Position numbers and translations under genes: made by a program. A DNA stretch of 64,000 nt. Source: Planctomycetota bacterium. GTDB lineage: Bacteria > Planctomycetota > JACOTG01. The stretch is taken from assembly GCA_016178505.1 (NCBI GenBank), contig JACOTG010000201.1, positions 2,413 through 66,412 on the forward strand, given 5' to 3'. Numbering within the stretch: the first letter of the stretch is position 1; the number at the start of each line of letters is the position of its first letter. The notes under the pieces were generated by a model. The model saw nothing but the letters and a program-made list of their open reading frames with translations, did not search any database and was not told the DNA's origin. Positions 39,260 to 61,382 of this stretch are shown here, one piece after another.

Positions 39260-39582
39260 TCGGCGTTACGTGACGGCGCAAGCGTCACTTCAATCAACGG
39301 AACTCGATTCGACGGATGGGCGATGCTCCCTTTGGAACTTCTTTGGAAATGCTGAGCGTTGGTGCGAAACGCCGCGACGCGTTTCTCGCGCGGGTTGATT
39401 CGAACCGCGCGACGGTTTCCGCTGCGGTGATCCTCGCGCGCGCCACGCGAGCGTTCGTGTGACCACTCGCGAGAAATGCGTTACATCGACTCGCCACGCG
39501 GCGTCGCATTCCCAATGAGGATTGTCGACCGCGCTGCGACTCAGAGCGTTGTGGGCGGCCGAAGTGCGCGTGACGCGCAAAG

Positions 39583-39620
39583 GAAAAGGAGCCCGGCAAT
39601 CGTGACCGCCGGGCTCCTTC
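39583..39620. terminator. bidirectional hairpin / rho-independent terminator downstream of groEL
   Basis: ggagcccggc-N9-gccgggctcc hairpin. On the minus strand it is followed by ttttccttt. Confidence 0.5.
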
Positions 39621-39645
39621 GTTTGGTCTGAGACTTCGCGGACTA

Positions 39646-41274
39646 TTACATGCCCATGCCGCCGCCGTGCGGCATCGCGGGCATCTTTTCCTTCTCTTCC
39701 GGGATCTCGCTGATGAGAGCCTCGGTGGTGAGGAGGAGCGACGCGATTGACGCGGCGTTCTGGAGCGCCGAGCGCGTGACCTTCGTCGGATCGATGATGC
39801 CTTCCTTGACGAGGTCGAGGTATTGTCCGGTTCGCGCGTCGAAGCCCTCGTTGGCGTTCTTGGCCTCCTTGACGCGCTGGACGACGATCGCGCCGTCCAC
39901 GCCCGCATTGACCGCGATCTGGCGCAGGGGCGCCTCGACCGCGCGGCGAACGATGTCGACGCCGACCTTCTCGTCGCCGGTGAGCTTCAGCTTGTCGAGC
40001 GCCTTGCTCGCGCGAATGAGCGCGACGCCGCCGCCCGGCAGGATGCCTTCCTCGACGGCCGCGCGGGTCGCATGGAGCGCGTCTTCGACGCGCGCCTTCT
40101 TCTCCTTCATTTCGGTCTCGGTCGCTGCGCCGACGTTGATCTGCGCGACTCCGCCCGAGAGCTTCGCCAGGCGCTCCTGGAACTTCTCGCGATCGTAGTC
40201 GGACGTCGTGGCGTCGATCTCGCGCTTGATCTGGGCGATGCGGCCCTGGATGGCCGCGGTCTCGCCGGCGCCCTCGACGATCGTGGTGTTCTCTTTGTCG
40301 ACGACGATCTTCTTCGCTTGGCCGAGGTCCTCGATCTTCACGTTGGCGAGCTCGATCCCGAGATCCTCGAAGATCGCCTTGCCGCCCGTGCGGACGGCGA
40401 TGTCCTCGAGCATGGCCTTGCGGCGATCGCCGAACCCGGGAGCCTTCACGGCGCAGCACTCGAACGTGCCGCGCAGGCGGTTCACGACGAGCGTCGCGAG
40501 CGCTTCGCCTTCGACGTCTTCGGCGATGATGACGAGCGGCTTGCCCGCGCGGTGGATCTTCTCGAGCAGCGGCACGAGGTCCTTCACCGACGAGATCTTC
40601 TTCTCGTGGATGAGGACGTACGGCTTGTCGAGAACGGCCTCCATCGAGTCGTTCTTGTTCACGAAGTAGGGCGAGATGTAGCCCTTGTCGAACTGCATGC
40701 CCTCGACCCACTCGACGTTGGTCTCGAGCCCCTTTCCTTCTTCGACGGTGATGACGCCGTCCTTGCCGACCTTTTCCATGGCGTCGGCGATCTGCTTGCC
40801 GATCTCCTCGTCGTTGTTCGAGGCGATGGCGCCGACCTGCGCGATCTCCTTCTTGCCCTTCACTTCCTTGCTCATCGACTTCAGCTCGTCGATGATCGCC
40901 CCGACCGCCGCCTCGATGCCGCGCTTCAGCGAGATCGGATTCGCGCCTGCGGTGACGTTGCGCAATCCTTCCTCGAAGATGGCCTCTGCAAGAACGGTGG
41001 CCGTCGTCGTGCCGTCGCCGGCGATTTCCGACGTCTTGCTGGCGACTTCCTTCACCATCTGCGCGCCCATGTTCTCGTAGGCGTCCTGCAGCTCGATCTC
41101 CTTCGCGACGGTGACGCCGTCCTTGGTGACGGTCGGCGACCCGAAGCTCTTCTCGAGGATGACGTTTCGGCCGCGCGGGCCGAGCGTCACCTTCACGGCG
41201 CGGCTGAGCTTGCGCACGCCGCTGCGAATGGCTTCACGCGCTTCCTGGTCGAAGGCGATTTTCTTGGCGCTCAT
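39646..41274 (-). CDS. groL: chaperonin GroEL (60-kDa)
   Basis: [20 protein letters not shown]...GGGMGM C-terminus. Full-length unmistakable GroEL. Confidence 0.95.
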
Positions 41275-41347
41275 GGTTTCTCTATCTCCTGGTTTCTCGT
41301 TGATTTCTCATGTGGCGGACTCGGCGCCGAGCCGGCGTCGAAGTGCG

Positions 41348-41653
41348 CTACTGGACGATGGCGAGGATGTCCTCTTCGGCCATGATCAAATAGCCTTCGC
41401 CGCCATGGCGAACTTCGGTGCCCGCGTACGAGTTGAAGATGACGCGGTCGTTCACCTTCACTTGGAACTCGACGCGCCGGCCGTTGTCGAGGACTCGACC
41501 TTCGCCGACGGCGACGACCTTGCCCTCGCGCGGCTTTTCCTTCGCCGTGTCGGGCAGGACGATTCCGCCCTTCGTGCGTTCCTCGGCCTCGAGGCGCTTG
41601 ATGAGGACCTTGTCGTTCAACGGTCGGATCTTCTCCGTCGCCATCTCGATCAC
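41348..41653 (-). CDS. groS: co-chaperonin GroES (10-kDa)
   Basis: [26 protein letters not shown]...[13 protein letters not shown]. Alternative start at ATG 41644 (MATEKIRPL). Confidence 0.9.
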
Positions 41654-42084
41654 TCCCTTCTATCTGGGTTCCTGTAGTAGCGTTCCAGTAGCATCTGGAC
41701 GCTGATTTTCACGACTTCCGCTTCGAACGGCTTCAAGATGATGGTGAACGCGCCCGCATCGAGCGCTTCGAGCTGCAGCTCCTTCGACTTGTCCGCGGTG
41801 AGGAAAATTGTCGGTGGCAGCGGATTGCGCACCTGATCGATCAGGCGCAGCGTCGCGAGCCCTGTGAGGTCGCGCATGTACATGTCGAGGATCAAGAGGT
41901 GCAGCGCCTCGATTCTTGCGATCTCGATGGCTTGCTTCCCGCAGTCCGCCTGCAGGACACGATGGCCTTCGCGATCGAGCAATCCTGTGACGGTTCGCCG
42001 GCACGCCGCGTCGTCGTCGGCGACGAGAATCGTGAACCGTTCGTGTGCCTCGTCTCGGCCCGGTAGCGTCGTTCGTATGGACAT
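41650..42084 (-). CDS. single-domain response regulator (CheY-like receiver), stop overlaps the groES start
   Basis: [20 protein letters not shown]...[13 protein letters not shown]...[29 protein letters not shown] (phospho-acceptor Asp in LILD, Thr/Lys motifs). The N-terminal extension of the ORF is rejected. Confidence 0.7.
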
Positions 42085-42381
42085 GACTTCGCCGATCCTA
42101 TCCGAGTGCGTGCGTCTTCGTATGGGGCCAGTATCAAACGCAGTGCCGATTCGACGCGGTCGTGGCGAGCATTCATAAACCCCAAAGAACAAAATGCTAA
42201 GAAGGTCGTGCCCAAGTTTCGTTCCAGGGCGTCGATGGGCCGCGTGCCAATCTGGCAGCCAACTCACGGTACCTCAGAAGGATTCTGTCAGAGTGTCAGT
42301 CGCCGATTCGCCGGCGGCTTGAAAGGACCGTGCGCGACGGTTAACGTCTGCGCGCACGTTCGGAGGGATGGAGTCAGAAGG

Positions 42382-43350
42382 GTGTCGATCATCGATCTTC
42401 GAAGACGCTGCCGCCGATGCATCGCGGTGTCCGTCGCGTTCGCGATGGTTGCCGCAGCTCCGTTGATTCTCGCGTCCGGCTGCGGCCGCGTCTCGCCGCG
42501 CGCGGCTGACGACGACGAGCCCACGGACGATCGGCCGGAGCTGGTTCGACGGTACGACATCCTCCGGAATCGGAATCCGATCGAATCGGAGCCCGTGCGG
42601 GAGACGCTTTCCGACGGATGGCGCCGCGCTCGATTCACGTTTCGTGGACAGAACCGGCGGGTGCTCACCGCGGAACTCGTGACGCCGCCGGCGACCGCGG
42701 GCGACGGCCCGGGCGCGATGGCGGTCGCCGTGTATCTCCTGCGAGCCGTCGAGACTCCGGACGTCGCACTCGAAGTCGCGCGCGGACTGCAACCCTTGCG
42801 CGTGGCGGTGCTGTCCTTTTCGCCCGAGAGCAGCGCGGGCTCGGCCTCTGCAAACGAGAAGCGAGAGACGCTCGAGAGAGATCGCCTCGCCGCACTCGAT
42901 GCACGGTTCGCGCTCGATGCGCTCGCCGCGTTTCCCGAGATCGATCGCGGTCGGATCGTCGTGATCGGCGCGAGTCAGGGCGCCGCACCCGCGTGCATCG
43001 TCGGGGGAGTCGACCCGCACGTGAACGGCGTCGTTTCCATCGTCGGAGGCGGCGACATCGCCGCCACGATGCGCGAGCGCTTCGCGGCGGATCCGGGCGA
43101 GCGCGCGGCCGAGATCAAGTCGGCGCTCAAGCGCATCGACCCGCGCGCCTACTTGCCATTTCTCGGGCCTCGTCCGATCCTGTTCGTTCAAGCGGAGCGC
43201 GACACGACTCCGCGTCCGCACGTGGAGTCGCTGATCGCGGCAGCGACGTCGAACAAGCACGTGGTCTGGCTCGACGAGGAGCATCGTTTTCCGTTCGACC
43301 GCGCAGCCCCTGCCGTGCGAGAGTGGCTGCGCACTCAACTGGGTTGGTGA
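42382..43350 (+). CDS. alpha/beta-hydrolase lipoprotein (dienelactone hydrolase / peptidase S9-like)
   Basis: Lipobox LILASGC. Nucleophile elbow VVIGASQGA. His near the C-terminus (DEEHRFPF). GTG start. Confidence 0.5.
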   Translation: MSIIDLRRRCRRCIAVSVAFAMVAAAPLILASGCGRVSPRAADDDEPTDDRPELVRRYDILRNRNPIESEPVRETLSDGWRRARFTFRGQNRRVLTAELVTPPATAGDGPGAMAVAVYLLRAVETPDVALEVARGLQPLRVAVLSFSPESSAGSASANEKRETLERDRLAALDARFALDALAAFPEIDRGRIVVIGASQGAAPACIVGGVDPHVNGVVSIVGGGDIAATMRERFAADPGERAAEIKSALKRIDPRAYLPFLGPRPILFVQAERDTTPRPHVESLIAAATSNKHVVWLDEEHRFPFDRAAPAVREWLRTQLGW

Positions 43351-45385: not shown

Positions 45386-46030
45386 CTATTTCTTCGGTTT
45401 GACCTGCACCCAGTTTTCCTTCTCGTCCTGGTACCAATAGCCGACGGGCGCCTCTTCGACCCACTTCTTCGCGAAGATCGATTGGATGCGCGGCACGTCG
45501 GCGGCCGAAATGTCGTTGGCGACGGCGAGCTCTCGGTAGAGCGCACTGCGATCGGCGTTTTCGGCGTCGACGAGCCGTCGCGCCTCCGTCTTGTCCTTCA
45601 GAGTGACGCCGTCGATCTCGCGAACCCCGAGGTTGCCGTTCTTGAGGATTCCGACGAGGCCCTTCTCGTAGAGCGGCTTCAACTTCTCGAGTCGCTCCTT
45701 CTGCGAGGCCTGGATCTTCTTCACGGCCGGGCTCGAAGCGTTCAAGTTGATCGGCTTGTCTTGGAGAGCAAGCTCCGCCGCATACACCGGGCGATCGAAC
45801 AGCGAGGCGAGGAAGCCCGTCTTCGGCGGCTCCTTTGCATCGGTCGATTCGGGTGACGGCACCGTCGAGTTGGGGTCGGCGGTCTCGACCGAGCTCTGGT
45901 AGTACTCGCGAGCCATCTTCCTCGCCAAGGCTTCCAACTCGGTCGCCGGGAAATTGACGGTCACGTAGAAGCAGCCAGTCACGATCGCCAGGAGGGCGAG
46001 GCACGCCGGTCTAGTCGTCATGCGGTTCAT
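45386..46030 (-). CDS. YdbL-like lipoprotein (DUF1318 family)
   Basis: Lipobox LAIVTGC. C-terminal region ADRSALYRELAVANDISAADVPRIQSIFAKKWVEEAPVGYWYQDEKENWVQV resembles E. coli YdbL (ERKASYQQLAKQNNVSVDDIAKLAGQKLV...GEYVQGINGKWVRK). Confidence 0.6.
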   Translation of the reverse strand: MNRMTTRPACLALLAIVTGCFYVTVNFPATELEALARKMAREYYQSSVETADPNSTVPSPESTDAKEPPKTGFLASLFDRPVYAAELALQDKPINLNASSPAVKKIQASQKERLEKLKPLYEKGLVGILKNGNLGVREIDGVTLKDKTEARRLVDAENADRSALYRELAVANDISAADVPRIQSIFAKKWVEEAPVGYWYQDEKENWVQVKPKK

Positions 46031-46105
46031 GGTTCGTTTGCTCCTGTTGTTCGAGATGCCGCAATCGTGGACGACATTCTAGCACTCGCCTCGAGATCAT
46101 CCGGG

Positions 46106-49100
46106 TCAGTCGGTTTTCTTGGCGTGCGCGCTTCGGATCTCCGCGATGAACTCGTCGAACGAAACGCCGAAGACCGCCGGATTGATCTTGATCGCGAGCC
46201 GAGGAAGCAAGCCAGCGGGGAGCAGTAGATACTCCTGCACTCCTTCCAGTTGTCGGAGCGGCCACGTGAATCGATCGGGCGTTCCGAACAGATCGTTGCC
46301 GTCCGCATCGAATCGACCGTGAAACTGGAAGATCCCGTTTTGGAGTGCGATCGCTGCGCCGATCTTCGAGTAGCGGAATGCGCCGAGGAAGTTCGCAAGA
46401 TGGCCCTGCAGAGTCAGGCGTCCTTCGGTGCTCAGATACGGGATCTGTTGCAGCGCTTTCAGGCCGACGATCTGCTTCGAGCGACCGTCGACGGTTCGAA
46501 ACCGCGCGAGGAATCGCTCGAGCTCGCCGGCGCCGATCCAGACGTACGGGACGTCGGCCTCGACGATTCCACGGACTTCGCCGTAGTCGAAGATCGTGGA
46601 CACGCGCTCGAGATCGACGTCCCACGCGGTCAGCGAGGTCTTGAATCGAGCGAGAGAACTGAACGGATGGTCGCCGGAGACGTCGCCGATCTTCACGTGA
46701 CCGCCGAATGCGCTGACGATCGTGTCGCCGCGCACGCGCAGCTGCGCCACCGAAGCGGATACCGCCAGTTCTGTCGGCGTGAGCATCGTCGCGTCGAACG
46801 GATACTTCGCTGCGAGTTCGGGAATCATTTGCGAGACCCGAAGACCGGAGAATCCGACGTCGGCGACGAGCATCACGCGATTGGCGACGTCGTCGAGCGT
46901 GTCCTCGGCGCGGATGCCGACGCGCTGAAGGGAGATGTCTCCGCCGAATCCCGAAAGGCGGATCGGCTCGAGGGACGTCTCGTTCTGCCATCCGCCTTCG
47001 GCTGGGCGAAACACGAGCCGCAGATGATCGCCGTGCACGGAACCGACGCGAAGCGATGAGACCGCGACCGTCGCGGTGTCGGCGGGCGCGGGCACGCCAA
47101 TCCCGAGCGGGACGTCGGCGTCGAGCATTTCCAAGTCGAGCGATTCGCCGTGCACGGCGACGTCGTGGAGACGGACTCGGCCGTTCATCGTCGTCGGCGC
47201 GTCGTGACGCAGGCGTGCGTCGACGTTCGCCTCGGCGCGGCCCGAGACGCGCAGCGCGGCGATCTTGGGCTCGGAGTCCTGCACGTTCGGCACGACGAGC
47301 GCTCGAAACGCCGCATCGAAATCGGGAACCGATGCGTGCAGTGCGATCGCCGCGTCGGGGGCCGTTCGTAGCCCCGTCGCCGATCCGGAGACGTCGGCGT
47401 CGACGAGCCCACCGAACGAAACGCGCGACGAGCGAAGCTCGAGTCGATCGGCGTCGAGGTCGTAGCTGCCGCCGGAGTCGAGCGACAGGGCGGTGATCGT
47501 GGCGTCGATGCTGTACTTCTTCGCAACGCCGAAGAAGCCGGTCGCGTTCCCGCGAACCGCGAGGTCGAGCCGCCGGCGGTCGGAGAGCGTCCCGTCGATC
47601 GAGAGAGTAGCCGCGACGCCGTCGGCTTCGACGTCGGCGAGTGCGAAGCCGATGCCGCCGAGGGTGACGTCGCCCGCGAGCCGGTGAGCGTTCGCTTCGT
47701 CCGATCGGTCATAGGCCAGCCGACAACCGAGCGTCCCGCGCATGGACGGAACGACGTGCGCGAGGGAGACGTCGCTGGCCGTAAGCGTTCCCGTGCGGAC
47801 GGCGCGATCGACGATGCGAAGACGAGTTTCGAGGCGGCCGAGCGTCGGCGACGTGATCGTGACGCCGGCCTCGACGTCTCCCGCTGCCGAGGCACTGCGC
47901 GCGGTTGCGTCCACGGTCGCGTCGGCGGTGCCGCCGCCCAGTGCGGCCGCGAGCTCGACGCCGTGTACGTCGCCTTTCGCGGTCGCACGCCAGCCTCCGT
48001 CGACCGCGCGCGCGAGGTTGGCGACCAGCGATGCACGGCCGTTCACGAGCCGTGCGGGGGCTTCCGGCGAATTCATGCCCGTGAGATCGACGTGCATTTC
48101 CGCGGCGACGTCGCCGTCGCGAGACGTTTCGAATCGATCGACCCGAATCGTCGCGTGCCCGGCGACGGGCGAGCCCCAGGGCGCGAGGTCGGTCTCGATC
48201 GTCGTGGGACGCGTGAGAATCGCTCGGGCATCGGCGACGTTCAGTGAGACGGAGGCGTCGCGCAGCTCCACGAGGCGGATCTGGGCGCGTTCGATCCCGG
48301 CGCTGACGACCTCGTTAACCACGGACACGTCGGCCACGACGTCGACGGGTGTTCGACCGATCGGCTCCGGAAACGTCGCAGAATCGATGTGAATGCGAAC
48401 GTGACCCGCGACTCCAGAGCCTTCGAGGGTCGCATCCGCCTCGATCTCCGACGCGCCGCCGACGGTGCCCGAGGGCACGCCGAGTGCATCGAGGAGCTCG
48501 AGCGGTGGGTTCGCCGCACGCGCGACGAGATGGAGTCGTCGCTGCGCGTCGACCGCGATGTCGAGTCGACACGGGCCGATCGATCCGCTCAGGGTGGCGC
48601 TCGTGAGTCCCGACCCGCCGAGCGTCGCCTCCCCGCGAACGTCCGAAAGCCGAATGGTTCGTCCTCGCCTCACGAAATTCACGACGCCGCTCTCGACCTC
48701 GACCCGATCGACGCGTGCGCCAGCGTTGCCCGTCCTACCCTTGCCGAGGCGAGAGAAAACGTCCGCGAGGTCATGCGTGCGGTCGAGATCGACGGCGACT
48801 TCGAGTCCCCGTACGACGATGCTCTCCACGTGGGGCGAGCCGGACGCGAGGGTGCGGGTATCGAATCGAGCGTCCACGAGTTCCGCACGCGCGGCAATGG
48901 CGTCGCCTGAATTGCCGAGCTCGACGTTTCCGATCGATGCGCGGCCCGGCGAGACGCCGAGGCCGCGAAGCTCGCCGGCGACGCGAAGTCCGGTGGCGTC
49001 CGAGGCCCGTCGAAGCAGGGACGGCCAAGCGAACGTGCGCACGAGCTGCGGGAGGAAGGCCCACGCTGCGGTCAAGAGCGCGACGATTGCCGCCGCAGCG

Positions 49101-49138
49101 ACGATGGTCCGGCGAGGCCAGCGTCTCGTTTTGGGCAT
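46106..49138 (-). CDS. large AsmA/YdbH-family inner-membrane-anchored protein (1010 aa)
   Basis: N-terminal TM anchor RRTIVAAAAIVALLTAAWAF, long repetitive beta-rich body. Synteny with the ydbL-like gene immediately downstream, as in the E. coli ydbH-ynbE-ydbL operon. Confidence 0.55.
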   Translation of the reverse strand: MPKTRRWPRRTIVAAAAIVALLTAAWAFLPQLVRTFAWPSLLRRASDATGLRVAGELRGLGVSPGRASIGNVELGNSGDAIAARAELVDARFDTRTLASGSPHVESIVVRGLEVAVDLDRTHDLADVFSRLGKGRTGNAGARVDRVEVESGVVNFVRRGRTIRLSDVRGEATLGGSGLTSATLSGSIGPCRLDIAVDAQRRLHLVARAANPPLELLDALGVPSGTVGGASEIEADATLEGSGVAGHVRIHIDSATFPEPIGRTPVDVVADVSVVNEVVSAGIERAQIRLVELRDASVSLNVADARAILTRPTTIETDLAPWGSPVAGHATIRVDRFETSRDGDVAAEMHVDLTGMNSPEAPARLVNGRASLVANLARAVDGGWRATAKGDVHGVELAAALGGGTADATVDATARSASAAGDVEAGVTITSPTLGRLETRLRIVDRAVRTGTLTASDVSLAHVVPSMRGTLGCRLAYDRSDEANAHRLAGDVTLGGIGFALADVEADGVAATLSIDGTLSDRRRLDLAVRGNATGFFGVAKKYSIDATITALSLDSGGSYDLDADRLELRSSRVSFGGLVDADVSGSATGLRTAPDAAIALHASVPDFDAAFRALVVPNVQDSEPKIAALRVSGRAEANVDARLRHDAPTTMNGRVRLHDVAVHGESLDLEMLDADVPLGIGVPAPADTATVAVSSLRVGSVHGDHLRLVFRPAEGGWQNETSLEPIRLSGFGGDISLQRVGIRAEDTLDDVANRVMLVADVGFSGLRVSQMIPELAAKYPFDATMLTPTELAVSASVAQLRVRGDTIVSAFGGHVKIGDVSGDHPFSSLARFKTSLTAWDVDLERVSTIFDYGEVRGIVEADVPYVWIGAGELERFLARFRTVDGRSKQIVGLKALQQIPYLSTEGRLTLQGHLANFLGAFRYSKIGAAIALQNGIFQFHGRFDADGNDLFGTPDRFTWPLRQLEGVQEYLLLPAGLLPRLAIKINPAVFGVSFDEFIAEIRSAHAKKTD

Positions 49139-49142: not shown

Positions 49143-50252
49143 TCAACTCGCCGGCGCGACCAGCGCGGCGCAACACGCCGTCATCGCCGCGTCGACGGTC
49201 ACGAAGTCGAGGCAAACCGCGCGTGGACACGCGCGCCTCCGGCACGGGCTGCAGGGAACGTTCGCGCTGACCGCCGAACTGCCCGGCAGTCGCGGGCCGT
49301 AGACGTCGGGATCCTTCGGGCCAAAGAGAATGACGACCCGGGTCCCGGCCGCTTCTGCGAGGTGCAGCGGTCCGGTGTCGCCGCCGACCACGAGGTCGGC
49401 CTCACCGAGGATCGCAGCCAACTCGACGAGCGCCTCGGCTCTCGGCGCCAGCCACGACTCTTCGCGCATGTGACGCCGGACGGACTCGGCGAGGGCGCGC
49501 TCGCCGGGGCCGTACGTGACGACGATCGTCGCGTCGTGCTCGCGCCGGAGCCGATCGCCGAGCTCCGCGAGCCGCTCGACTCCCCAGCGCTTGAAAGCCC
49601 CGTACGCCGACGTGCTCGGATGGATCACGATGCGCGGGCCGGCGCCGGGGAGCGCTCCCCAAAAGGCGCGGGCGGCGCCGATCGCCGCATCGGGGACGTC
49701 GAGGTGCAAGTCGAGCGTCGCGGGCGGCGCGACCCCGAGCGGCGCCAGCAGCGAGAGGTCCTTGTCCATCCGGTGGCGAATGCCGGGCGGGACGATCACC
49801 CGATCCGTTTGAAAGCGACTGTTTCCCTCGCGACCGCTGCGGGAAGCGAATCCGATTCGCCGGGGCGCGGCCGCCGCGACGACCGCGAGCGCGCTCTTGG
49901 CATTCGATTGAAAGTCGAGCGTGACGTCGAATCGGCGGCGCCGGAGCGAACGGTAGAAGCGAAACATCTCGACGAGCGTCGGCACGAATCGAATCGGCGA
50001 GCGAAGTCCGGCGACGAATCGACGCCGCGGAAAAACGATTCGGTCATCCACTTCCAGAACGCGATCCACGATTGCCGCGGCGCGATCTTCGGTGAGCCAG
50101 GTCAAGTGGGCATCGGGGTAGGCTCGACGGAGCGCGCGGACCGCCGGCAACGCGAACAGCACGTCGCCGATCGCGCTGAGCCGGATCACGAGGATTCGCG
50201 GACCCGACCGAGCGGCCGGATTGCCGGTGGAGCGAGCATCGAGCGAGATCAC
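49143..50252 (-). CDS. glycosyltransferase family 9 (ADP-heptose:LPS heptosyltransferase-like)
   Basis: RILVIRLSAIGDVLFALPAVRALRRAYPDAHLTWL N-terminus and C-terminal GGDTGPLHLAEAAGTRVVILFGP, both diagnostic for GT9. Start set at GTG (residue 40 of the ORF). Confidence 0.65.
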   Translation of the reverse strand: MISLDARSTGNPAARSGPRILVIRLSAIGDVLFALPAVRALRRAYPDAHLTWLTEDRAAAIVDRVLEVDDRIVFPRRRFVAGLRSPIRFVPTLVEMFRFYRSLRRRRFDVTLDFQSNAKSALAVVAAAAPRRIGFASRSGREGNSRFQTDRVIVPPGIRHRMDKDLSLLAPLGVAPPATLDLHLDVPDAAIGAARAFWGALPGAGPRIVIHPSTSAYGAFKRWGVERLAELGDRLRREHDATIVVTYGPGERALAESVRRHMREESWLAPRAEALVELAAILGEADLVVGGDTGPLHLAEAAGTRVVILFGPKDPDVYGPRLPGSSAVSANVPCSPCRRRACPRAVCLDFVTVDAAMTACCAALVAPAS

Positions 50253-50419
50253 GAGGACGGGATTATATGAAAGAAGCCGCGCCGGGATGTTCGAGTGCCG
50301 ATTCTGCGGTCGAAGGTCGCCGATCCGGGGCAGCGGCGTCTTGCTGCGCTCCGGACGTCGGTGCGACAATCGCGCGCCGCACGGCTGGAGGATTTCGAAT
50401 CTATTCGGAGCGGGTGTTC

Positions 50420-51031
50420 ATGACGAACCCCACTCGAGGCGACGTGACGCGGCTCCTCGACTCGGCCGAGCGCGGCGACGAAACCGCGGCGACGTTGCTT
50501 CTTCCGATCGTCTACGACGAGCTTCGGCGGCTTGCTCGCAGTCGCCTCGCGCGTGAGCCGGCGGGGCAGACGCTTCAAGCAACGGCGCTCGTCCACGAGG
50601 CCTACGTGCGGCTCGTCGGCGAGGAGGGGGCACGATTCGATGGCCGGGCGCACTTCTTTGCCGCTGCGGCCCGTGCGATGCGTCGAATTCTCGTCGAGCG
50701 GGCACGTCACCACGGACGGCGGAAGCGCGGCGGCGGGCGCGATCGGCTGTCTCTTTCGGACGTGGCGCTTTCGTCGGGCGACGACGCATCGTCCGTCGAC
50801 GTCCTCGACCTCAACGAGGCGCTCGAGCGGCTCGCCCGCTACGACGAGCGAAAGTGCGACGTCGTGTCGCTGCGTTTCTTCGCCGGCCTCGATATCGACG
50901 AGATCGCGCGAGCGCTCGGCGTCTCACGGGCGACGATCAAGGCCGACTGGAGCTATGCGCGAGCATGGCTGCACCGCGAGCTGACGAAGGGCGACACGCG
51001 CTTCGACGCCGGGGCAAACGATGAGTGCTGA
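50420..51031 (+). CDS. ECF-type RNA polymerase sigma factor of the Ser/Thr-kinase-associated family (TIGR02999-like)
   Basis: DVTRLLDSAERGDETAATLLLPIVYDELRRLA N-terminus typical of this ECF group. Region 2/4 helices. Overlaps the downstream kinase gene by 11 nt. Confidence 0.75.
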   Translation: MTNPTRGDVTRLLDSAERGDETAATLLLPIVYDELRRLARSRLAREPAGQTLQATALVHEAYVRLVGEEGARFDGRAHFFAAAARAMRRILVERARHHGRRKRGGGRDRLSLSDVALSSGDDASSVDVLDLNEALERLARYDERKCDVVSLRFFAGLDIDEIARALGVSRATIKADWSYARAWLHRELTKGDTRFDAGANDEC

Positions 51032-53690
51032 GGGTGCGCGACGAGCCGAGGATCTCTTCCTCGCGGCGTTGGATGTGTCTGCGGCCGAGCGCCCCGGGTT
51101 TCTCCGCGAGCGATGCGGCGACGACGACGAGCTTCGCGTGGAAGTCGAGTCGCTTCTCGCCCATCACGTCGAGTCGACGGGATTCCTCGAGACGCCGATC
51201 GCCGAAGCGATCTCACCGCCGGTTCCCGAGCGCATCGGCGACTACGCGATTCGCGGCATGGTCGGCGAGGGGGGCATGGGCGTCGTCTATCTCGCCGAGC
51301 AGGAGAACCCACGCCGGACGGTCGCGCTGAAGATGATTCGTCCGGGTCTTGCCTCCCGAGAAACGCTTCGTCGATTCGAGCGAGAGGCCCGGCTCATCGG
51401 CCGACTCCAGCATCCCGGGATCGCGCAGATCTTCGAGGCGGGAACTGCGGATGCCGGTCTCGGCCCGCAGCCGTTCTTCGCAATGGAGCTGATCCGTGGA
51501 CGCACGCTCATCGAGCACGCCGAATCGGAGAGGCTCGGCATCCGAGAGCGACTTTCGCTCTTCGTCAGAGTGTGCGTCGCCGTGGAGCACGCGCACCGAG
51601 CGGGCGTGATCCACCGCGACCTGAAGCCGAGCAACGTCCTCGTCGATGCGACCGGTCAACCGAAGGTGATCGACTTCGGGGTGGCGCGCGCGACGGACTC
51701 GGGCGTCGAAGGGACGACGCTGCGAACGGACGTCGGCCGGCTCATGGGCACGTTGCCGTACATGAGCCCCGAGCAGTGCGCGGCGAGCCCGGAGTCGATC
51801 GATGCGCGTTCGGACGTCTATGCGCTAGGCGTGATCGGCTACGAGCTGCTCACGGGCAAGCTGCCGCTCGACGTCGGCGAACGGCCTCTCCTGGAGGCCG
51901 CTCGAATCGTTCGGGAGGACGATGCGACGCCGCTGTCGTCCTACGGCGCGATCTTCCGCGGCGACCTCGAGACGATCTTCGCGAAAGCGCTCGAGAAGGA
52001 TCGCGCCCGGCGATACGCGAGCGCCGGTGAGCTGGCTCGGGACGTCGATCGTTTTCTGAGGGACGAGCCGATCTTCGCGCGCCCCGCGAGCACCTTCTAC
52101 CACCTCGACAAGTTCGCGCGCCGAAACCGGGCTCTCGTCGCCGGCGTCGCCGCTGCTTTCGTCACGCTCGCGTCCGGAATCGTCGGAACGACGTGGCAAT
52201 GGCGTGCCTCGGTGAAAGAACGCCGGCGCGCCGAATCCGCCGAGACGCTGGCCACGAGACGTCTCGAGGAGGTGACGAAGGCAAAGGACCTGGCACAGGC
52301 ACGCGCCGACGAGTCGACGACGATGTTCGACTTCCTGCGTGACATGCTCGTGGCCGTCGATCCGAAGGCACTCGGGCGCGACGTCAAGGTCGTCGACGTC
52401 CTCGACGCCGCCTCGAAGAAGGTCGACTCGGCGGTCGCCGGGCATCCCGTGATCCAGGCAAAGCTCGATCAAGCGATCGGCGTGACGTACGACGGGTTGG
52501 GCCGGTTCGACGAGGCCGAGGCTCGCCTGCGAGCGGCGCTCGCGCTTCGACGCGGTCTCGGAACCGACGACGATCGCGACCTTCTCGCCGTGAAAAACGA
52601 TCTCGGCCAGGTGCTCACGGACAAGGGCGAACCCGGAAAAGGAGAGGAGGTGCTGCGTCCCATTCTCGCAAGACTGCTCGCTCGATACGGCGAGTCGGAC
52701 GCCCTCACGCTCGCCGCGATGAACAATCTCACGCTCGCGCTGTTTCTCCAAAAGAAGCTCGACGAGGCGGAGTCGCTGGGCCGGCGTGCGCTGGAGCTCC
52801 GTCGCCGCCATCTCGGCGACCGCGACGCGGAAACGCTCGTCTCGATGGAGACCCTTGCAGAGATCTTGCAGGCGAGCGGCAGGTTTCGCGACGCCGAGAC
52901 GCTGTTCAAGGCGGCGCTCGCAGGGCAGTACGAGGTGTCGGGCGCCGACGACCCCTACACGATCGCCGCGACGAACAACCTGTCGGCGCTTTACGAGGAC
53001 ATGGATCTTCCCGATCGCACCGAGCCCCTCATTCGCCGAGCGCTCGATGCCGCACGACGAGTGTTCGGCCCCCAGCACGTGAACACGTGCCGATCGATGC
53101 ACGGGCTCGCATTGCACCTCTACCAAAAGGGAAGCTACGCCGAAGCCGCGGATCTCGAGCGTCGTGCTCTGCCCGGTTTTCGCCTCGCTCTCGGCGACGA
53201 TCACGAGGACACCCGCTTCGCCATGCGACTCCTCGCCAGAGCGCTGCGGGCGCTGAACCAACTCGACGAGTGCGAGGAACGCTATCGCGAGGTGCTTGCG
53301 GCGTATCGTCGTGCTGAAGGGGATGACTCGCGGACGACCATCGCCGTGAAGTTCCAGCTCGCCGTCTGCCTGATGTCGGAGGGCAAATTTGCGGAGGCCA
53401 ATGGGCTCTTCTCGGAGACGTTGGAGTCAGGCCGGCACGTGCTGCCGCCCGCATCGGACGACCTCGCGCTGTACGAGCAATTCTATGGACGATGCCTGCG
53501 GTTCGAAGAGCGATTCGACGAAGCCGAGCCCCATCTGCTCGAAGGGTACCGCCGGCTGAACGAGGCGTACGGAGCGCGCCATGACCGCGTCGTCGACGCG
53601 ATCGGCGACCTTGTCAACCTGTACGAGAAGTGGGGCAAACCCGAAAAGGCAGCGGAGTATCGAGTGCTCGTGCCCGCCGAGCCGAAGTGA
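51021..53690 (+). CDS. Ser/Thr protein kinase with single TM helix and extracytoplasmic TPR domain
   Basis: GEGGMGVVYLA, HRDLKPSNVLV, DFGVA, GTLPYMSPEQ. TM LVAGVAAAFVTLASGIVG. More than 10 TPR-like repeats C-terminal. Confidence 0.8.
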   Translation: MSAEGARRAEDLFLAALDVSAAERPGFLRERCGDDDELRVEVESLLAHHVESTGFLETPIAEAISPPVPERIGDYAIRGMVGEGGMGVVYLAEQENPRRTVALKMIRPGLASRETLRRFEREARLIGRLQHPGIAQIFEAGTADAGLGPQPFFAMELIRGRTLIEHAESERLGIRERLSLFVRVCVAVEHAHRAGVIHRDLKPSNVLVDATGQPKVIDFGVARATDSGVEGTTLRTDVGRLMGTLPYMSPEQCAASPESIDARSDVYALGVIGYELLTGKLPLDVGERPLLEAARIVREDDATPLSSYGAIFRGDLETIFAKALEKDRARRYASAGELARDVDRFLRDEPIFARPASTFYHLDKFARRNRALVAGVAAAFVTLASGIVGTTWQWRASVKERRRAESAETLATRRLEEVTKAKDLAQARADESTTMFDFLRDMLVAVDPKALGRDVKVVDVLDAASKKVDSAVAGHPVIQAKLDQAIGVTYDGLGRFDEAEARLRAALALRRGLGTDDDRDLLAVKNDLGQVLTDKGEPGKGEEVLRPILARLLARYGESDALTLAAMNNLTLALFLQKKLDEAESLGRRALELRRRHLGDRDAETLVSMETLAEILQASGRFRDAETLFKAALAGQYEVSGADDPYTIAATNNLSALYEDMDLPDRTEPLIRRALDAARRVFGPQHVNTCRSMHGLALHLYQKGSYAEAADLERRALPGFRLALGDDHEDTRFAMRLLARALRALNQLDECEERYREVLAAYRRAEGDDSRTTIAVKFQLAVCLMSEGKFAEANGLFSETLESGRHVLPPASDDLALYEQFYGRCLRFEERFDEAEPHLLEGYRRLNEAYGARHDRVVDAIGDLVNLYEKWGKPEKAAEYRVLVPAEPK

Positions 53691-56436: not shown

Positions 56437-57420
56437 TTGACGCTCGAGCAACGAGGTCTTAAGATCGCCGCGACCTTGTTTGCAAATGCAGGAGACGCGT
56501 TCGTGACCCTCGCCAACTCGGCCGTTGTCCCCGGCCGTTTCCGAATCGTGGAGGGCGATCGGGGGCGGAAACTCCTCATCGTTCGCGACGGGTATGAGGA
56601 CGCGCTCGGGCCGCTGCTCGACCTTCCCTACGAGAATTTGCTGGCGCTGCCGTCGTCAGGACCGATCCGGCGATTCCGCGGGCGTGGTGCGCCGATCTCG
56701 TTCGCGATTCCAGGCCATCCAGGCGAGCGCGCGTTCGTTCGAACTTACCGCCGCGGCGGCTTGCTCCGGCACGTCCTCCCCAATTGTTTCCATGGAAGTG
56801 CGCGACCGATGCGCGAGCTCGGCGCGGTCGAGCGAGCGTGCGAGGGTGGGGTCGCGACGGCCCGGGCGCTGGCCCTGCTCGGCGAGCGCCGATGGTTCGG
56901 GTTCTTCTCGTGGCGGATCGCGCTCGTCGAGATCCCCGGGTCAATCGACCTCGAACGGTTCTTCCGAGCGCGCAGAACGGCCCCCGGAGCGCGTCGCGTC
57001 CGATCGGTGATTCGCGAGGCGTCGCGAACGGTTGCGGCGCTGCATGCCGCCGGCCTCGACCACGCGGATCTGCACTTGAAGAACTTGTTGGTCGACGAGA
57101 GCGGCGAGGGCCCAGTCTTCGTCGTCGACCTCGACAAGGCGACACACCACGATCCGCTTCCGCTCCGCCGTGTGGAGGCGAACCTGTTGCGGCTCGATCG
57201 CTCCGTCGAAAAGCAAAGGCGTCGAGGAGTGATTCTGTCGCGCTGTGATCGCTTGCGCTTCCTGCGCGATTACGGGAAGGCCGGCTTGCCTCCGCGCGCG
57301 GCCCTTCGACGATTGCTCCGTCGTCGGGCGCGCACGCTCTGGTGGCATCGGCTCGGGTGGTCGCTCTCGGAACTCGTCCGCGGCGGCGCATCGCACGCCG
57401 GGGTGGATGTCGATGCGTGA
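56437..57420 (+). CDS. lipopolysaccharide kinase family protein (Kdo/WaaP-like)
   Basis: Catalytic loop LDHADLHLKNLLVD and FVVDLDKA typical of the Kdo / LPS core kinase family. TTG start as in the ORF track. Confidence 0.55.
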   Translation: MTLEQRGLKIAATLFANAGDAFVTLANSAVVPGRFRIVEGDRGRKLLIVRDGYEDALGPLLDLPYENLLALPSSGPIRRFRGRGAPISFAIPGHPGERAFVRTYRRGGLLRHVLPNCFHGSARPMRELGAVERACEGGVATARALALLGERRWFGFFSWRIALVEIPGSIDLERFFRARRTAPGARRVRSVIREASRTVAALHAAGLDHADLHLKNLLVDESGEGPVFVVDLDKATHHDPLPLRRVEANLLRLDRSVEKQRRRGVILSRCDRLRFLRDYGKAGLPPRAALRRLLRRRARTLWWHRLGWSLSELVRGGASHAGVDVDA

Positions 57421-57467
57421 GTCGCTCGTCGCTTCGAGCGGGGCCGGAAGTTCGGCGGGACTCGTGC

Positions 57468-58244
57468 ATGGCTGATCGCCCACGCATCACCGCATGCATC
57501 ATCACCCTGAACGAAGAGGCCAACATCCAGGAGTGCCTCGAGAGCATCAAGTGGGTCGACGAAATCGTGGTCATCGACTCCGAGAGCACGGACCGCACGG
57601 TCGAGATCTGCGACAGATACGGCGCGCGGGTGGAACGTCGGCCGTTCCCCGGTCACATCGAGCAGAAGAACCATGCCGTGCGTTCCGCCACGAGCCCGTG
57701 GGTACTGTGCATCGATGCCGACGAGCGGCTATCGCCCGCTCTGTCGACGGAGATCCAACGCGAGCTGGAGACGAACGGTGATACGCTCGACGGATACTAC
57801 ATGCCCCGCCACACGTTCTATCTCGGTCGATGGATCGACCACGGTGGATGGTATCCGGACTATAAGCTGCGCCTCTTCAAAAAGGAGAAAGGTGCGTGGG
57901 GCGGGACCAATCCGCACGACCGGGTCGTGCTCGAAGGCGAGACGAGAGTGCTGAGAAGCGATCTCTTGCACTTCACGTACCGTGACATCTCGCACCACGT
58001 GCGCACGATCAACTCGTTCACGACGATCATGGCCGAAGAGCGACACCGGCAAGGTCGGCGCTTTGGTCTGCCGGTTCTGGTGCTGAAACCGTTCTTCAAG
58101 TTCTTCAAGATGTACGTTTGGCAGAAAGGCTTCTTGGACGGGCTCCCCGGTTTCGTGATCGCAGTCAGCGGAGCGTACTACGTGTTCCTCGCGGACGCGA
58201 AGTTGTGGGAGATCCAACGGCTCGGCGAGCGAGCGAAATCGTGA
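57468..58244 (+). CDS. glycosyltransferase family 2 (LPS core WaaE/KdtX-like)
   Basis: ITACIITLNEEANIQECLESIKWVDEIVVIDSESTDRT...CIDADERL. Highly characteristic of WaaE-like LPS core glucosyltransferases. Confidence 0.7.
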   Translation: MADRPRITACIITLNEEANIQECLESIKWVDEIVVIDSESTDRTVEICDRYGARVERRPFPGHIEQKNHAVRSATSPWVLCIDADERLSPALSTEIQRELETNGDTLDGYYMPRHTFYLGRWIDHGGWYPDYKLRLFKKEKGAWGGTNPHDRVVLEGETRVLRSDLLHFTYRDISHHVRTINSFTTIMAEERHRQGRRFGLPVLVLKPFFKFFKMYVWQKGFLDGLPGFVIAVSGAYYVFLADAKLWEIQRLGERAKS

Positions 58245-59950
58245 GCGAGGCGACGGCGATGGTCGACGTTCCGATCGACATCGAAGGGACGCGATGCCGC
58301 GCCGTCGACGTGATTCGCGATGGTCTCGCGTGGCGCGTCGACGCCGATTGGCGCGACGTCGTCGTCCGCGATGTCATCGACCGGCTGCCGGCAATTCGCG
58401 AGGGCGCCGCGCTGGGCACCGTCGTCAAGCAGAACCTCATGCGCACCGTTTATCGCATCGCGGTGGAGGGTGCGCCCGGTCGTTGCGTCTATCTCAAAGT
58501 TCATCGCGTTCCGACTTTGATCGAGAAGCTGAAGTCGCTCGTCCGTGCGAGCCGCGCGGAAACCGAATGGCGGATGATGACGATCTTCCGCGAGTCGGGG
58601 CTTCCGACCGCACGCCCGCTTGCGGTTGCCGAGCGCCGCGCAGGAGCCGTGCTTCGCGACGCGTACTTCGTGACGGAGGGGATCGCCGACGCGACCGATC
58701 TGGTGCCGTACTTGAATCGCGCATTCCCCGTGCGATTGCGCGGTGGCGTGCGCGGGGCAAAGCGCGCTTTGCTCGCCCGGCTGGCTCGTCTCGTTCGTTC
58801 GATGCACGAGCGCGGGATCTACTACAGCGATCTCCACAGCGGGAACATCCTCGTCACCGGCGATCCGCCGGACGAGGCCCGCATCCACTTCATCGATCTC
58901 CACACGGGCCATCGTGTCTCGAAGCTCGGCGTCAGGAGGCGCCTTCGGAATCTGGCGCGGTTGAGCCACTCGCTGCTCGAGGCGACGACTCGGACCGACC
59001 GACTGCGATTCTTCCTCGATTACGCGGCCGGCGATGCGGTCCTCGGACCGGCGCTGCGTTCGGCATTTCGGCGATTGGAGGCCCGTGTGGCGCGGCTCGA
59101 GCGGCGCCGGCTGCGAAGCCGTGCGCTGCGCTGCGTCATGGAGAGCAGTCGATTCACGCGGCTGCGCAGTGACGGACTTCGCGGGTTCGCCCAGCGACGT
59201 TTTTCTGCTGGGGTTTGGCGCGAGGTGATCACCGGACATGCTCGGGCGCTTCGAGGAGACGTTGGCAGGAAGTTCAAGGACGGCCGCAGCACTCGCGTGA
59301 CGGGATTCGAAACGTCCGCGGGCGAATGTGTGTGCGTCAAGGAATACCGATGCCCGTCGCCGCTGGATCGACTGAAGCGCGCGCTCGGGTATCGAAAGGC
59401 ATTGCGTTCATGGCGCGCGGGAAACGCGCTTCTCGTCCGCGGAATCGAGGTCGCCGAGCCGCTCGCGTTCCTGCGGGCGGCGGGTCCCGGCGGCGCGGAT
59501 TTGCTCGTCATGCGCGACGTGTCTGATCTCTCGCGACTCGATCATTTCGTTTTCGAGCGCATGGCGGGGACGAGGAATCGAGAGCGGCGCCGGCTGGAAC
59601 GCGAGATGGCGACCTTCGTCGCCGACCTGCATCGTCGCGGCGCTTACCACAATGATCTGAAGGCGTGCAACGTGCTCGTCGCCGGAACCGACGCAGCGCG
59701 GAGGTTCCTGCTGATCGATTTCGACGGCGCGCGCACCGTGCGCGGAGGGGTGAGCGTGCGCCGGCGCATCAAGAACCTCGCGCAGCTGTCGGCGAGCATT
59801 CCGACGTTCGTGTCGCTATCGGAGCGGTTTCGGTTCCTTCGCGACTACTCGCAGGGCCGAATGTCGCGAGCCGAGCGGCGGCGGTACTACGTGGGTGTGA
59901 TTCGCGCGTGCCGGCGCAAGACGACCGTCGGAGAGAGGCCGATCGAGTGA
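58243..59950 (+). CDS. tandem two-domain lipopolysaccharide-kinase-like protein (two Kdo/WaaP-type kinase domains)
   Basis: First domain YYSDLHSGNILV...FIDLHTG. Second domain AYHNDLKACNVLVAG...LIDFDGAR. GTGA overlap with the upstream GT2 stop. Confidence 0.55.
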
Positions 59951-59999
59951 TCGAGGTCTTGCGAAAGATCGACGTGGCGAAGCGGTGGATCGAGGTCAC

Positions 60000-61208
60000 A
60001 TGAGAATTCTGCATCTCTTCTCGAACTGGAAGTGGACCGGGCCTGCGGAGCCTGCCCTGAATCTCGCCGCAGAGCTTCGCCGCGCCGGGCACGACGTGCT
60101 CTTCGCGTGCGGACGACCGGTGAAGGGATGTGAGAACTTCGTCGCACGCGAGGCGCGCGCGCGGGGAATCGAGCCGATTCTCCAGTTTCGACTGAACAAG
60201 CATCGACGTCCGCTCGACAACCTCCACGATCAGCGCCGATTGCCGAAATTCATCGAACGAGAACAGATCGACATCGTTCATGCCCATCTCGACAACGATC
60301 ACCTGCTCGCGGCGCGCGCCGTGAGATCGCTTTCGCGTGCGGTTCCGGTGGTGCGCACGTACTACGGCGGCGAGCCGCCGTCGCGTCGATCGATCACGCG
60401 AAAGCTCCTCGAGGGCTCGAGCGACGCCATCATCGTGATCTCGGACCGCGTCCGCGACGCGCTCGTGGCCGAGCTCGGAGTGCCCGTCGGGACTCTCTTC
60501 CGGCTCGAGGGGACGGTCGATCTCGCGCGATTCGACCCGGCACGACGAGTGAAGTCGATCCGCGAGCGGCTCGACGTCGCGGGAGATGCGCCCTGTTTCG
60601 GCATCGTCGCTCGCATGCAGCGACACCGTCGGTTCGACCTCTTGCTCGACACGATCAGCCGAGTCGTGGCGCGCGAGCCTCGTGCGCGATTCGTGTTCGT
60701 CGGTCGCGGAACGCGGATGGAAGAAGTCCTCCGAAAGCCGGCCCGAGAGCGGTCAATCGAAGCGTTTCTGAGATTCCCCGGATACCTGGAGGGGGACGAG
60801 TTCGTGGCGGCCCTCGCGTCGATGGATGCGCTCCTGTTCACGGTGCCCGGTTCGGACGGATCGTGCCGTGCCGTCCGGGAAGCGATGGCGATGGGGCTTC
60901 CCATCGTTGCGTCGAAGCGCGGCATCCTCCCGGAGCTCGTGAAGGACGACGAGACCGGGTTTTCGCTCGACGAGGAGCCGGGGGCGTGGGCATCGGCGGT
61001 GCTGCGCCTCGCGTCGGATCGCGCGCTTCGATCCCGGATTTCGCAGGGCGCTCGGCGACATGCGGCCCGGTTCGCGATCGCCGACCATGCTCGCGAGGTC
61101 GCACGAATCTATCGGTTCCTGTCGCGTCGCGTCGCGTCGAGGGCGCGACTGGGTTCGACGGAGTCGGGCGTCGCCGCCGTCAATTGGAAGCGGAGGAGTC
61201 GCGTCTGA
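60000..61208 (+). CDS. glycosyltransferase family 4 (GT-B, group 1)
   Basis: MRILHLFSNWKWTGP N-terminus and C-terminal E-x7-E-like region (AVREAMAMGLPIVASKRGILPELV). Confidence 0.7.
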   Translation: MRILHLFSNWKWTGPAEPALNLAAELRRAGHDVLFACGRPVKGCENFVAREARARGIEPILQFRLNKHRRPLDNLHDQRRLPKFIEREQIDIVHAHLDNDHLLAARAVRSLSRAVPVVRTYYGGEPPSRRSITRKLLEGSSDAIIVISDRVRDALVAELGVPVGTLFRLEGTVDLARFDPARRVKSIRERLDVAGDAPCFGIVARMQRHRRFDLLLDTISRVVAREPRARFVFVGRGTRMEEVLRKPARERSIEAFLRFPGYLEGDEFVAALASMDALLFTVPGSDGSCRAVREAMAMGLPIVASKRGILPELVKDDETGFSLDEEPGAWASAVLRLASDRALRSRISQGARRHAARFAIADHAREVARIYRFLSRRVASRARLGSTESGVAAVNWKRRSRV

Positions 61209-61267
61209 CGCGAGGTTTCGACGGCCCGGAGGTTGCGGTGGGGACGCGAGTCGGTTTGTCGTCGCAT

Positions 61268-61296: not shown

Positions 61297-61382
61297 CGGG
61301 CCTCACGGCATTCGGAGCAGGCGGTGCTCCGAGGCCCACGAAAGCGACTCGCTCAGACGTTCTCTTGGGGATTCCGAGGCCG

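Follow-up and report, generated by a model that had tools for sequence, protein, structure and literature searches.

A conserved receiver-groES-groEL gene order in Planctomycetota with a predicted sigma-54-type promoter and a candidate enhancer-binding activator encoded nearby

Control of bacterial chaperonin genes by sigma-32, or by HrcA and its CIRCE element (controlling inverted repeat of chaperone expression), is textbook knowledge, whereas hardly any experimental work has addressed heat-shock circuits in Planctomycetota. Control of a chaperonin operon by sigma-54 and an activator has a precedent in Bradyrhizobium japonicum, where groESL3 is RpoN-dependent (PMC4842269). Rhodopirellula baltica has rpoN as well as several heat-induced copies of cpn10/cpn60 (PMC2754498), and a recent in-silico survey of Planctomycetota (PLoS One, 2025) predicted that sigma-54 promoters are enriched ahead of the GroEL, GroES, IbpA, GrpE, DnaJ and DnaK clusters of orthologous groups (COGs) in Planctomycetia and Phycisphaerae, and likewise ahead of CheY-like receivers (PMC12316311). 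Here, we describe a 64-kb stretch of DNA with 65% G+C from a Planctomycetota bacterium (contig JACOTG010000201.1, positions 2,413 to 66,412; the whole stretch is referred to below as the window), in which the gene of a stand-alone CheY-like receiver domain lies directly ahead of groES and groEL. Comparison with related loci makes it probable, in our view, that the three genes form a single operon, transcribed from an activator-dependent sigma-54-type promoter and ending at a terminator after groEL.

The likeness to groESL3 of B. japonicum lies in a groES-groEL copy with a -24/-12 promoter and an activator of the GAF-AAA+-helix-turn-helix (HTH) type in place of CIRCE or sigma-32 elements (PMC4842269), the sigma-54 dependence being predicted from comparative data in our case. 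The locus differs from groESL3 by its stand-alone receiver as a conserved first cistron, by an activator with an N-terminal FHA domain and a non-canonical version of the GAFTGA loop, and by its lineage, Planctomycetota. The enhancer is also distinct: NifA-binding sites have the form TGT-N10-ACA, whereas the motif present here is CTGNCA-NN-CTGNCAG. As for the Planctomycetota survey, it provides COG-level statistics only, and the portion of its text searched contains no receiver-groES-groEL operon, enhancer motif or specific activator (PMC12316311).

Another point of comparison is the pspF/pspABCDE system of Escherichia coli. As in that system, the activator gene of the window subclade is divergent and preceded by a sigma-70-type promoter, and the enhancer-like sites are in the shared intergenic region. 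In psp, the first product of the sigma-54 stress operon controls the activator. In contrast to psp, the first gene here encodes a receiver domain and not a PspA/IM30 protein, and the activator has FHA and GAF sensory domains, while PspF is devoid of any; the likeness is thus limited to gene and promoter layout, and feedback is hypothetical. Lastly, the groESL operons under HrcA-CIRCE or sigma-32 control share with this locus the genes themselves and, presumably, a stress-related function, but their regulatory elements differ from those found here (see below).

The three gene identities are unambiguous. GroES exceeds the cut-off of its NCBIfam equivalog family (133.7 versus 120), as does GroEL (855.7 versus 582), and the receiver has PF00072 (Response_reg) as its sole domain (80 bits, residues 19-125), no output or DNA-binding domain being found in it by the domain search. 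The receiver, which is 100% identical to a database protein named 'response regulator [Planctomycetes/Planctomycetota bacterium]', displays the acidic pocket, phospho-Asp, Thr/Ser and Lys of single-domain response regulators, without an output domain. Its start codon, ATG 42084, is backed both by homologues that begin at the same 'M[SA]IR[ST]T' and by a conserved promoter-like motif upstream. The preliminary description of this DNA, made from the sequence alone, had recognized a 144-amino-acid stand-alone receiver ahead of groES and groEL, and the PF00072, Cpn10 and Cpn60 matches on one strand bear this out.

A profile search gathered about 95 clusters into the receiver family (E = 1e-73 to 1e-33), with the next matches at 1e-20; the family is sharply bounded. 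Apart from a few longer gene calls, its members are single-domain proteins of 126-157 amino acids. The acidic pocket D23-D25, the phospho-acceptor D67, T/S96 and K118 are kept in all 91 aligned members (Ser replacing Thr at position 96 in two of them), which argues that the receiver is under selection as a phosphorylatable protein. At residue 71 (41872-41874, minus strand), the window subclade carries Arg (DMYMR), where 93% of the family has the Pro of DxxMP. The database matches of the receiver are generic ones, far below the NCBIfam family cut-offs: it is similar, for instance, to the receiver domains of NtrC-, AtoC- and ZraR-type activators, and RssB is among the weak matches. CpdR and RssB are phosphorylatable receivers that act on the quality-control machinery by protein-protein contact; no specific sequence relationship connects them to the receiver described here. 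A search of the genome contigs with the receiver returned only two unrelated regulators, and a profile search of representatives was uninformative, as proteins with several receiver domains dominated the scores. No histidine kinase was found among the scanned window genes, and none is conserved in the flanks of related loci.

Thirteen distinct loci were inspected: the window, L003, L005, L007, L008, L009, L012, L092, L094, L095, L096, L098 and L099. In all of them receiver, groES and groEL follow one another on one strand, with receiver identities ranging from 100% to 29%. The metagenome scan that yielded L012, its only true family member, also gave 79 generic regulators; these served as a control, and none of the 79 loci showed a groES match. 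With 13/13 family loci against 0/79 other regulator loci, the adjacency is not due to chance. Receiver, groES and groEL thus look like a conserved and apparently co-transcribed unit, and the operon that had been proposed from the sequence of this locus gains support from its relatives.

The junction between receiver and groES reads AGA AGG GAG TGA tcgag ATG GCG, with the receiver stop TGA at 41652-41650. The groES start kept in relatives is ATG 41644, 5 nucleotides (nt) past this stop, and the gene calls of L005, L007 and L008 all place it there. This departs from the ATGA-type overlap claimed previously: the only alternative start, an in-frame GTG at 41653, would overlap the receiver stop as GTGA, and L008 has GTA at that position. 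Translational linkage is close nonetheless, because the groES Shine-Dalgarno sequence, AGGGAG, is made by the last receiver codons (41650-41664, minus strand; residues R-R-E = AGA AGG GAG). The gap is 3-5 nt in six of the 13 loci and 21-105 nt in the seven others; in relatives with 3-5-nt gaps, the receiver tails are RRE, GRE, RRQ or RRRP. The long spacers of L012, L092, L095 and L096 (57-105 nt) hold a G+C-rich hairpin without a U tract (in L012, for example, GGCCGCCcgtcaaGGCGGCC), which could set the ratio of receiver to chaperonin expression via processing or partial termination. At the other end of the unit, the hairpin that follows groEL folds with -35.6 kcal/mol (z = -4.9), and none of 200 shuffled sequences folds equally well. 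This terminator was missed by a combined terminator and sigma-70 consensus scan of 39300-42800, due to the loop definition used, and the region was then folded directly.

What drives this unit is suggested by the DNA upstream of the receiver. The upstream regions of the five closest loci align with 57% mean identity and are poorly conserved outside three blocks. One of these, tCGGCAY-N4-TTTGWT, begins 61-71 nt ahead of the start codon of the receiver, in whose vicinity no other block is invariant. In the window, its GG is at 42147-42146 and its -13/-12 positions are 'GA' (42135-42134); relative to the sigma-54 consensus TGGCAC-N5-TTGCW, the block keeps the GG, the 10-nt spacing, the TTG and the G at -13 but has A for the C at -12. 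The window subclade as a whole has the form GG-N10-G(A/T), with A or T instead of C at -12, and the canonical GG-N10-GC is found at the orthologous position in eight of the 13 loci, the more distant ones (Table 1). The pattern GG[CT]A[CT]-N5-TTG[ACT], for which about 0.01 matches per region are expected by chance, has exactly one operon-strand match upstream of the receiver in every locus (330 nt scanned in 11 loci, 420 nt in L098 and L099). Transcription is predicted to start near 42122, giving a leader of about 38 nt. Two other sigma-54 promoter candidates were discarded because of wrong spacing: 'TGGCAC' at 42243-42248, a segment of enhancer-like site 2, and 'GGGCAC...TTAGCA' at about 42210-42190.

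The exact variant GGCAY-N4-TTTGWT occurs twice in the window, versus 0.00 expected from 100 shuffles, and in this organism promoters with a -12 GA or GT are probably nothing out of the ordinary. The second copy, GGCATCATTTTTGTT at 10310-10324 (plus strand), is intergenic between 4926-10292 and 10402-12444, just downstream of the gene of a 1788-amino-acid activator and about 78 nt upstream of an open reading frame (ORF) for a 680-amino-acid secreted protein. The latter (10402-12444) has a signal-peptide-like start and a dockerin-like 'GDLNFDRVIDVSD'.

Further upstream, about 80-150 nt from the promoter motif, all 13 loci contain one or two copies of CTGNCA-NN-CTGNCAG. This motif is absent from 845 kb of control loci and has a chance rate of 0.003 per region. 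Where two copies were compared, their spacing is 41-42 nt (window, L008, L005, L003, L094 and L096, with 42 nt in L096), and in four of the five close loci a distance of exactly 152 nt separates site 1 from the -24 GG, the intervening sequence not being conserved. The predicted sites would thus fall in the range of about 80-200 bp from the promoter that is expected of activator sites for sigma-54. The stretch between sites and promoter has an AT-rich core, with a mean GC content of 0.48-0.49 at -50 to -20 from the GG versus about 0.66 in the flanks (average over the 13 loci). Sigma-54 promoters often have a bending site, or one of the integration host factor (IHF) type, between enhancer and promoter, and the AT-rich spacer may be such a region. 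In L009 (45-150), and also in L010 and L011, a long AT-rich inverted repeat (aactaagtaactaactcggg...cccgagttagttacttagtt) is present upstream of the receiver; all three contigs break off some 300-320 nt before the receiver begins. In L094, a palindrome of this kind, gtaactacttatttaacaagtagttac, stands between the enhancer-like sites and the promoter. Such inverted repeats could represent a repeat element, or else sites of bending or binding.

Signs of classical heat-shock control were also sought. With up to 3 mismatches allowed, CIRCE (TTAGCACTC-N9-GAGTGCTAA) is absent from the window, as it is, at 0 mismatches, from 95 fetched loci, in keeping with the failure to find it that was reported initially. 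Of the two weak half-sites pointed out at that time, 'ttagcattt' (42200-42192) and 'gaatgctcg' (42174-42166), the presence and the wrong spacer (17 nt) hold true; a CIRCE-like role does not, as they fall within AT-rich DNA and are not kept as an inverted repeat in relatives. A CIRCE or sigma-32 promoter between receiver and groES would have meant independent transcription of groESL; no motif of this kind was found there in the 13 loci. More broadly, the interval from receiver start to groES start lacks any sigma-32, sigma-70 or sigma-54-like motif in all 13 (CTTGAA-N12-18-CCYYAT being the sigma-32-type pattern), and 39300-42800 contains no sigma-70 consensus promoter. No sigma-32 promoter of the form CTTGAAA-N13-15-CCCCATNT was found on the operon strand: CTTGAAA occurs only once upstream of the receiver (about 42318-42324), on the other strand, where it pairs with TAACGT over a 17-nt spacer, and the CCCCAT that follows the -12 element (about 42126-42121) lacks a -35 partner and is not found in relatives. 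No Rfam family matched 39300-42600 at E <=1, so that no ROSE element, FourU-type thermometer or other known RNA family was detected there, and folding revealed no significant RNA structure in the leader or in the groES-groEL spacer. Neither hrcA nor rpoH nor rpoN is among the scanned window genes.

The CTTGAAA just mentioned belongs to a divergent sigma-70-like promoter, kept as TTGAA(A/C)-N17/18-TAA(C/G)GT in the window, L003, L005, L007 and L008. Its -10 element has 3/6 matches to TATAAT and was missed by the consensus scan, and it may show the form that housekeeping promoters take in this lineage. The two-gene unit that it faces begins about 300 nt from the receiver start. The first gene, with a likely start at GTG 42382, encodes a lipoprotein with a signal peptide and the lipobox LASGC, and has orthologues at the same position in L005 and L096. 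The second gene encodes the candidate activator, an AAA+ enhancer-binding protein according to its Sigma54_activat domain (PF00158, 216 bits), whose best NCBIfam match is NifA, below the family cut-off. Its orthologues (45-84% identity) conserve the recognition helix SRKT[ILV]HEK[IV]K and are encoded less than 5 kb from receiver-groESL in the six loci checked, with differing orientation and intervening genes. The FHA domain keeps, as read from the sequence, GR...SxxH...NG, the signature of phospho-threonine binders. A DUF1318 (YdbL-like) gene lies next to the activator gene on the minus strand, after a gene for a 1010-amino-acid DUF748/YhdP-like (AsmA-family-like) protein; this pair (45386-49138), possibly an envelope lipid-transport module, also flanks the activator in L003 and L005.

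The L1 loop of the candidate activator, YAPNSGISGASPKGKPGKFE, contains SGISGA and not the canonical GAFTGA. In PspF, F85 and T86 of this loop contact sigma-54 (PMC3467059), which makes the variant both a caution and a point of interest. It is identical or near-identical in orthologues, and a large FHA-GAF subfamily (P0137-P0230) has YAPxSGI[SA]G[AS]xPxGKPGKFE in place of GAFTGA; several of these proteins are annotated Planctomycetes, and one (P0199) comes from a 7.87-Mb contig. Other FHA-GAF activators keep GAFTGA, among them one annotated Aminicenantaceae. The Planctomycetota survey retained GAFTGA-carrying activators only, and the SGISGA subfamily would therefore escape it (PMC12316311). A co-evolution of the -12 GA/GT variant with the SGISGA loop was considered and rejected, because L096, L098 and L099 pair SGI(S/A)G loops with canonical TTGC promoters, and because the second GT-type promoter of the window adjoins the gene of an activator with a canonical GAFTGA. 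This other activator (4926-10292, plus strand) is a 1788-amino-acid fusion of Ser/Thr kinase, AAA_16, TPR, GAF, sigma-54 interaction and HTH_8 domains, i.e., an unusual path from kinase to enhancer-binding protein in one polypeptide. Since the window has two such activator genes, the presence of rpoN in the genome is implied.

Taken together, these elements are consistent with the following mechanism. Sigma-54 holoenzyme would bind the -24/-12 element some 60 nt ahead of the receiver gene, and activation would require an enhancer-binding ATPase at the two tandem CTGNCA-NN-CTGNCAG sites (at about -129 and -170). This ATPase, most likely the neighbouring FHA-GAF-AAA+-HTH protein, itself made from the divergent sigma-70-like promoter, would reach the closed complex by looping over the AT-rich spacer, to yield a single receiver-groES-groEL transcript. 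Its activity could be gated by phospho-threonine binding through FHA, by a GAF ligand, or by both; Ser/Thr kinases are abundant near the operon, and those encoded at 51021-53690 and 4926-10292 of the window are candidates for the FHA input. Judging by its FHA and GAF domains, the activator would respond to phospho-threonine (Ser/Thr kinases) and to a small ligand rather than to a His-Asp phosphorelay. The receiver would be translated just ahead of GroES and could be phosphorylated by an unlinked kinase, and it may feed back on the activator, by analogy with PspA and PspF, or act on the chaperonin.

The role of the receiver is where this scheme differs most from what was proposed initially, namely that heat-shock chaperonin expression is wired to phosphorelay signalling rather than to HrcA. 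A His-Asp phosphorelay controlling chaperonin transcription through the receiver would account for the lack of CIRCE, for the linkage to groESL in 13/13 loci, for the strict phospho-acceptor chemistry of the 91 family members and for the resemblance to receiver domains of, among others, NtrC-, AtoC- and ZraR-type activators. The receiver, however, has no DNA-binding or other output domain with which to act on a promoter, it is encoded downstream of the conserved promoter and so is itself an operon product, the neighbourhood offers no conserved histidine kinase, and the cis-elements kept in relatives are of sigma-54 type and enhancer type; on balance, we find this reading unlikely. Because it lacks a DNA-binding or output domain, the receiver is better seen as an operon product that is at most a possible feedback modulator, and a feedback or modulatory component is the role we find most plausible. 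Hence, of the initial proposal, a non-HrcA, signalling-linked control holds up and the receiver as transcription switch does not: the main regulator is most likely sigma-54 with an enhancer-binding protein, the receiver being cargo or modulator, and a modulatory His-Asp input through it is possible.

Two other alternatives concern the promoter and its activator. The groES and groEL genes could be expressed mainly from a housekeeping-type promoter of their own, within the receiver gene or the spacer, with the sigma-54 promoter acting on the receiver and perhaps a degree of read-through. Cells usually require chaperonins in large basal amounts, seven of the 13 loci have spacers of 21-105 nt, often with a G+C-rich hairpin, and planctomycete housekeeping promoters are poorly defined, as illustrated by the divergent promoter, which escaped the consensus scan with its 3/6 match at -10. 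Against these considerations stand the motif-free interval from receiver start to groES start, the 3-5-nt gaps of six loci with a groES Shine-Dalgarno sequence inside the last receiver codons, and a gene order and orientation that are invariant over deep divergence, all of which lead us to consider a separate groESL promoter quite improbable. Somewhat less remote, if still doubtful, is the idea that the sigma-54 promoter is real and responds to an activator encoded elsewhere, the neighbouring FHA-GAF protein perhaps not engaging sigma-54 at all. Its SGISGA loop would fit this view, as would the enhancer-like sites kept in L092, L094 and L095 without an activator gene nearby, and shared macro-synteny could explain the proximity. 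Yet many FHA-GAF proteins strongly conserve the variant loop, and this speaks for a functional contact surface; the conservation of the recognition helix goes along with that of the enhancer-like sites; the gene of the activator stays within 5 kb in six of six loci despite local rearrangements; and the window subclade shows the classic divergent layout of activator, enhancer and promoter.

For the sigma-54-dependent operon itself, several observations weigh on the other side. The -12 element of the window is GA and not the near-invariant GC, and the sigma-54 consensus, at up to 2 mismatches, occurs in the window at chance frequency (14 matches versus 13.7 expected); the case for the promoter thus rests on comparative conservation. 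The motif patterns were in part defined on loci that were later counted; L092, L094, L095, L096, L098 and L099 were fetched after pattern definition, and all six fit. The loop of the candidate activator departs from GAFTGA by Phe to Ile, Thr to Ser and a 2-residue insertion, no activator gene is present within 6 kb in L092, L094 and L095 despite their enhancer-like motif, and rpoN is missing from the scanned window genes. The proximity of activator and operon may be partly inherited macro-synteny, since rluA, Glyco_transf_9, Kdo kinases and gltX are shared neighbours as well. Finally, a weak internal or constitutive promoter of the operon is possible.

In the literature searched, we came across no groESL operon headed by a conserved receiver cistron, nor any account of the CTGNCA enhancer motif and its architecture, of a specific FHA-GAF activator linked to such an operon, or of the SGISGA loop subfamily. 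The locus offers a concrete, testable module made of a promoter, an enhancer motif, a candidate FHA/GAF activator and a phospho-receiver encoded together with GroES and GroEL. It also draws attention to a large enhancer-binding subfamily with a conserved non-GAFTGA loop, of the sort that motif-filtered surveys discard, and to the possibility that -12 GA/GT promoters function in one lineage. Should the receiver indeed feed back on the activator or act on GroEL, two-component signalling would be tied to protein folding capacity in a new way. A more speculative extension, which we put forward as a long guess, is that the receiver is a PspA-like anti- or co-activator or a GroEL/GroES modulator, that SGISGA is a planctomycete-specific sigma-54 contact, and that CTGNCA-NN-CTGNCAG is the enhancer core of a lineage-wide sigma-54 heat-shock regulon that merges Ser/Thr-kinase and His-Asp signals and replaces HrcA and sigma-32.

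Table 1. Features of the receiver-groES-groEL locus in window coordinates, and canonical promoter sequences at the orthologous position in related loci.
Feature	Position	Strand	Sequence or basis
Stand-alone receiver (CheY-like response regulator, 144 amino acids)	42084-41650	minus	first cistron; PF00072
groES (98 amino acids)	41644-41348	minus	Cpn10, 123 bits; NF001534
groEL (542 amino acids, GGM-type C-terminal tail)	41274-39646	minus	TIGR02348
Intrinsic terminator after groEL	39620-39576	minus	16-bp G+C-rich stem, then UUUUCCUUU
Predicted sigma-54-type -24/-12 promoter	42148-42133	minus	CGGCAC-TGCG-TTTGAT (CGGCACTGCGTTTGAT); comparative conservation
AT-rich-core spacer, sites to promoter	42149-42243	minus	GC profile over 13 loci
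Enhancer-like site 2	42258-42244	minus	CTGCCAGATTGGCAC; centred about 129 nt upstream of predicted transcription start
Enhancer-like site 1	42299-42285	minus	CTGACACTCTGACAG; centred about 170 nt upstream of predicted transcription start
Divergent sigma-70-like promoter	42319-42347	plus	TTGAAA-N17-TAACGT; faces lipoprotein and activator genes
Esterase-like (AXE1 / alpha-beta hydrolase) lipoprotein, first divergent gene	42382-43350	plus	weak AXE1 match
FHA-GAF-AAA+(sigma-54 interaction)-HTH_8 enhancer-binding protein, 650 amino acids	43429-45381	plus	candidate activator; domain search
Canonical promoter, L012			TGGTATGGCCTTTGCC
Canonical promoter, L092			TGGTATGGACTTTGCC
Canonical promoter, L009			CGGCACGGACGTTGCG
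Canonical promoter, L094			CGGCACAGACCTTGCG
Canonical promoter, L095			CGGCACAGGGGTTGCT
Canonical promoter, L096			TGGCATGACCATTGCT
Canonical promoter, L098			TGGCACCGCAGTTGCG
Canonical promoter, L099			TGGCATCGTCTTTGCT

Beyond the operon and its divergent neighbours, the window (49143-50369 and 56437-62846) shares macro-synteny with the distant loci L098 and L099 (9885-15391). The genes in common are those of a heptosyltransferase (Glyco_transf_9), two to three Kdo/WaaP-family kinases, a glutamyl-tRNA synthetase (gltX) and an RluA-type pseudouridine synthase adjoining groEL. Elsewhere in the window, a protein with a prepilin-type N-terminal methylation motif (12715-13413, plus strand) and an ORF resembling an exosortase (EpsH) fragment (15542-16090, minus strand) hint at a PEP-CTERM/exosortase system upstream of the polysaccharide cluster at 28-36 kb.

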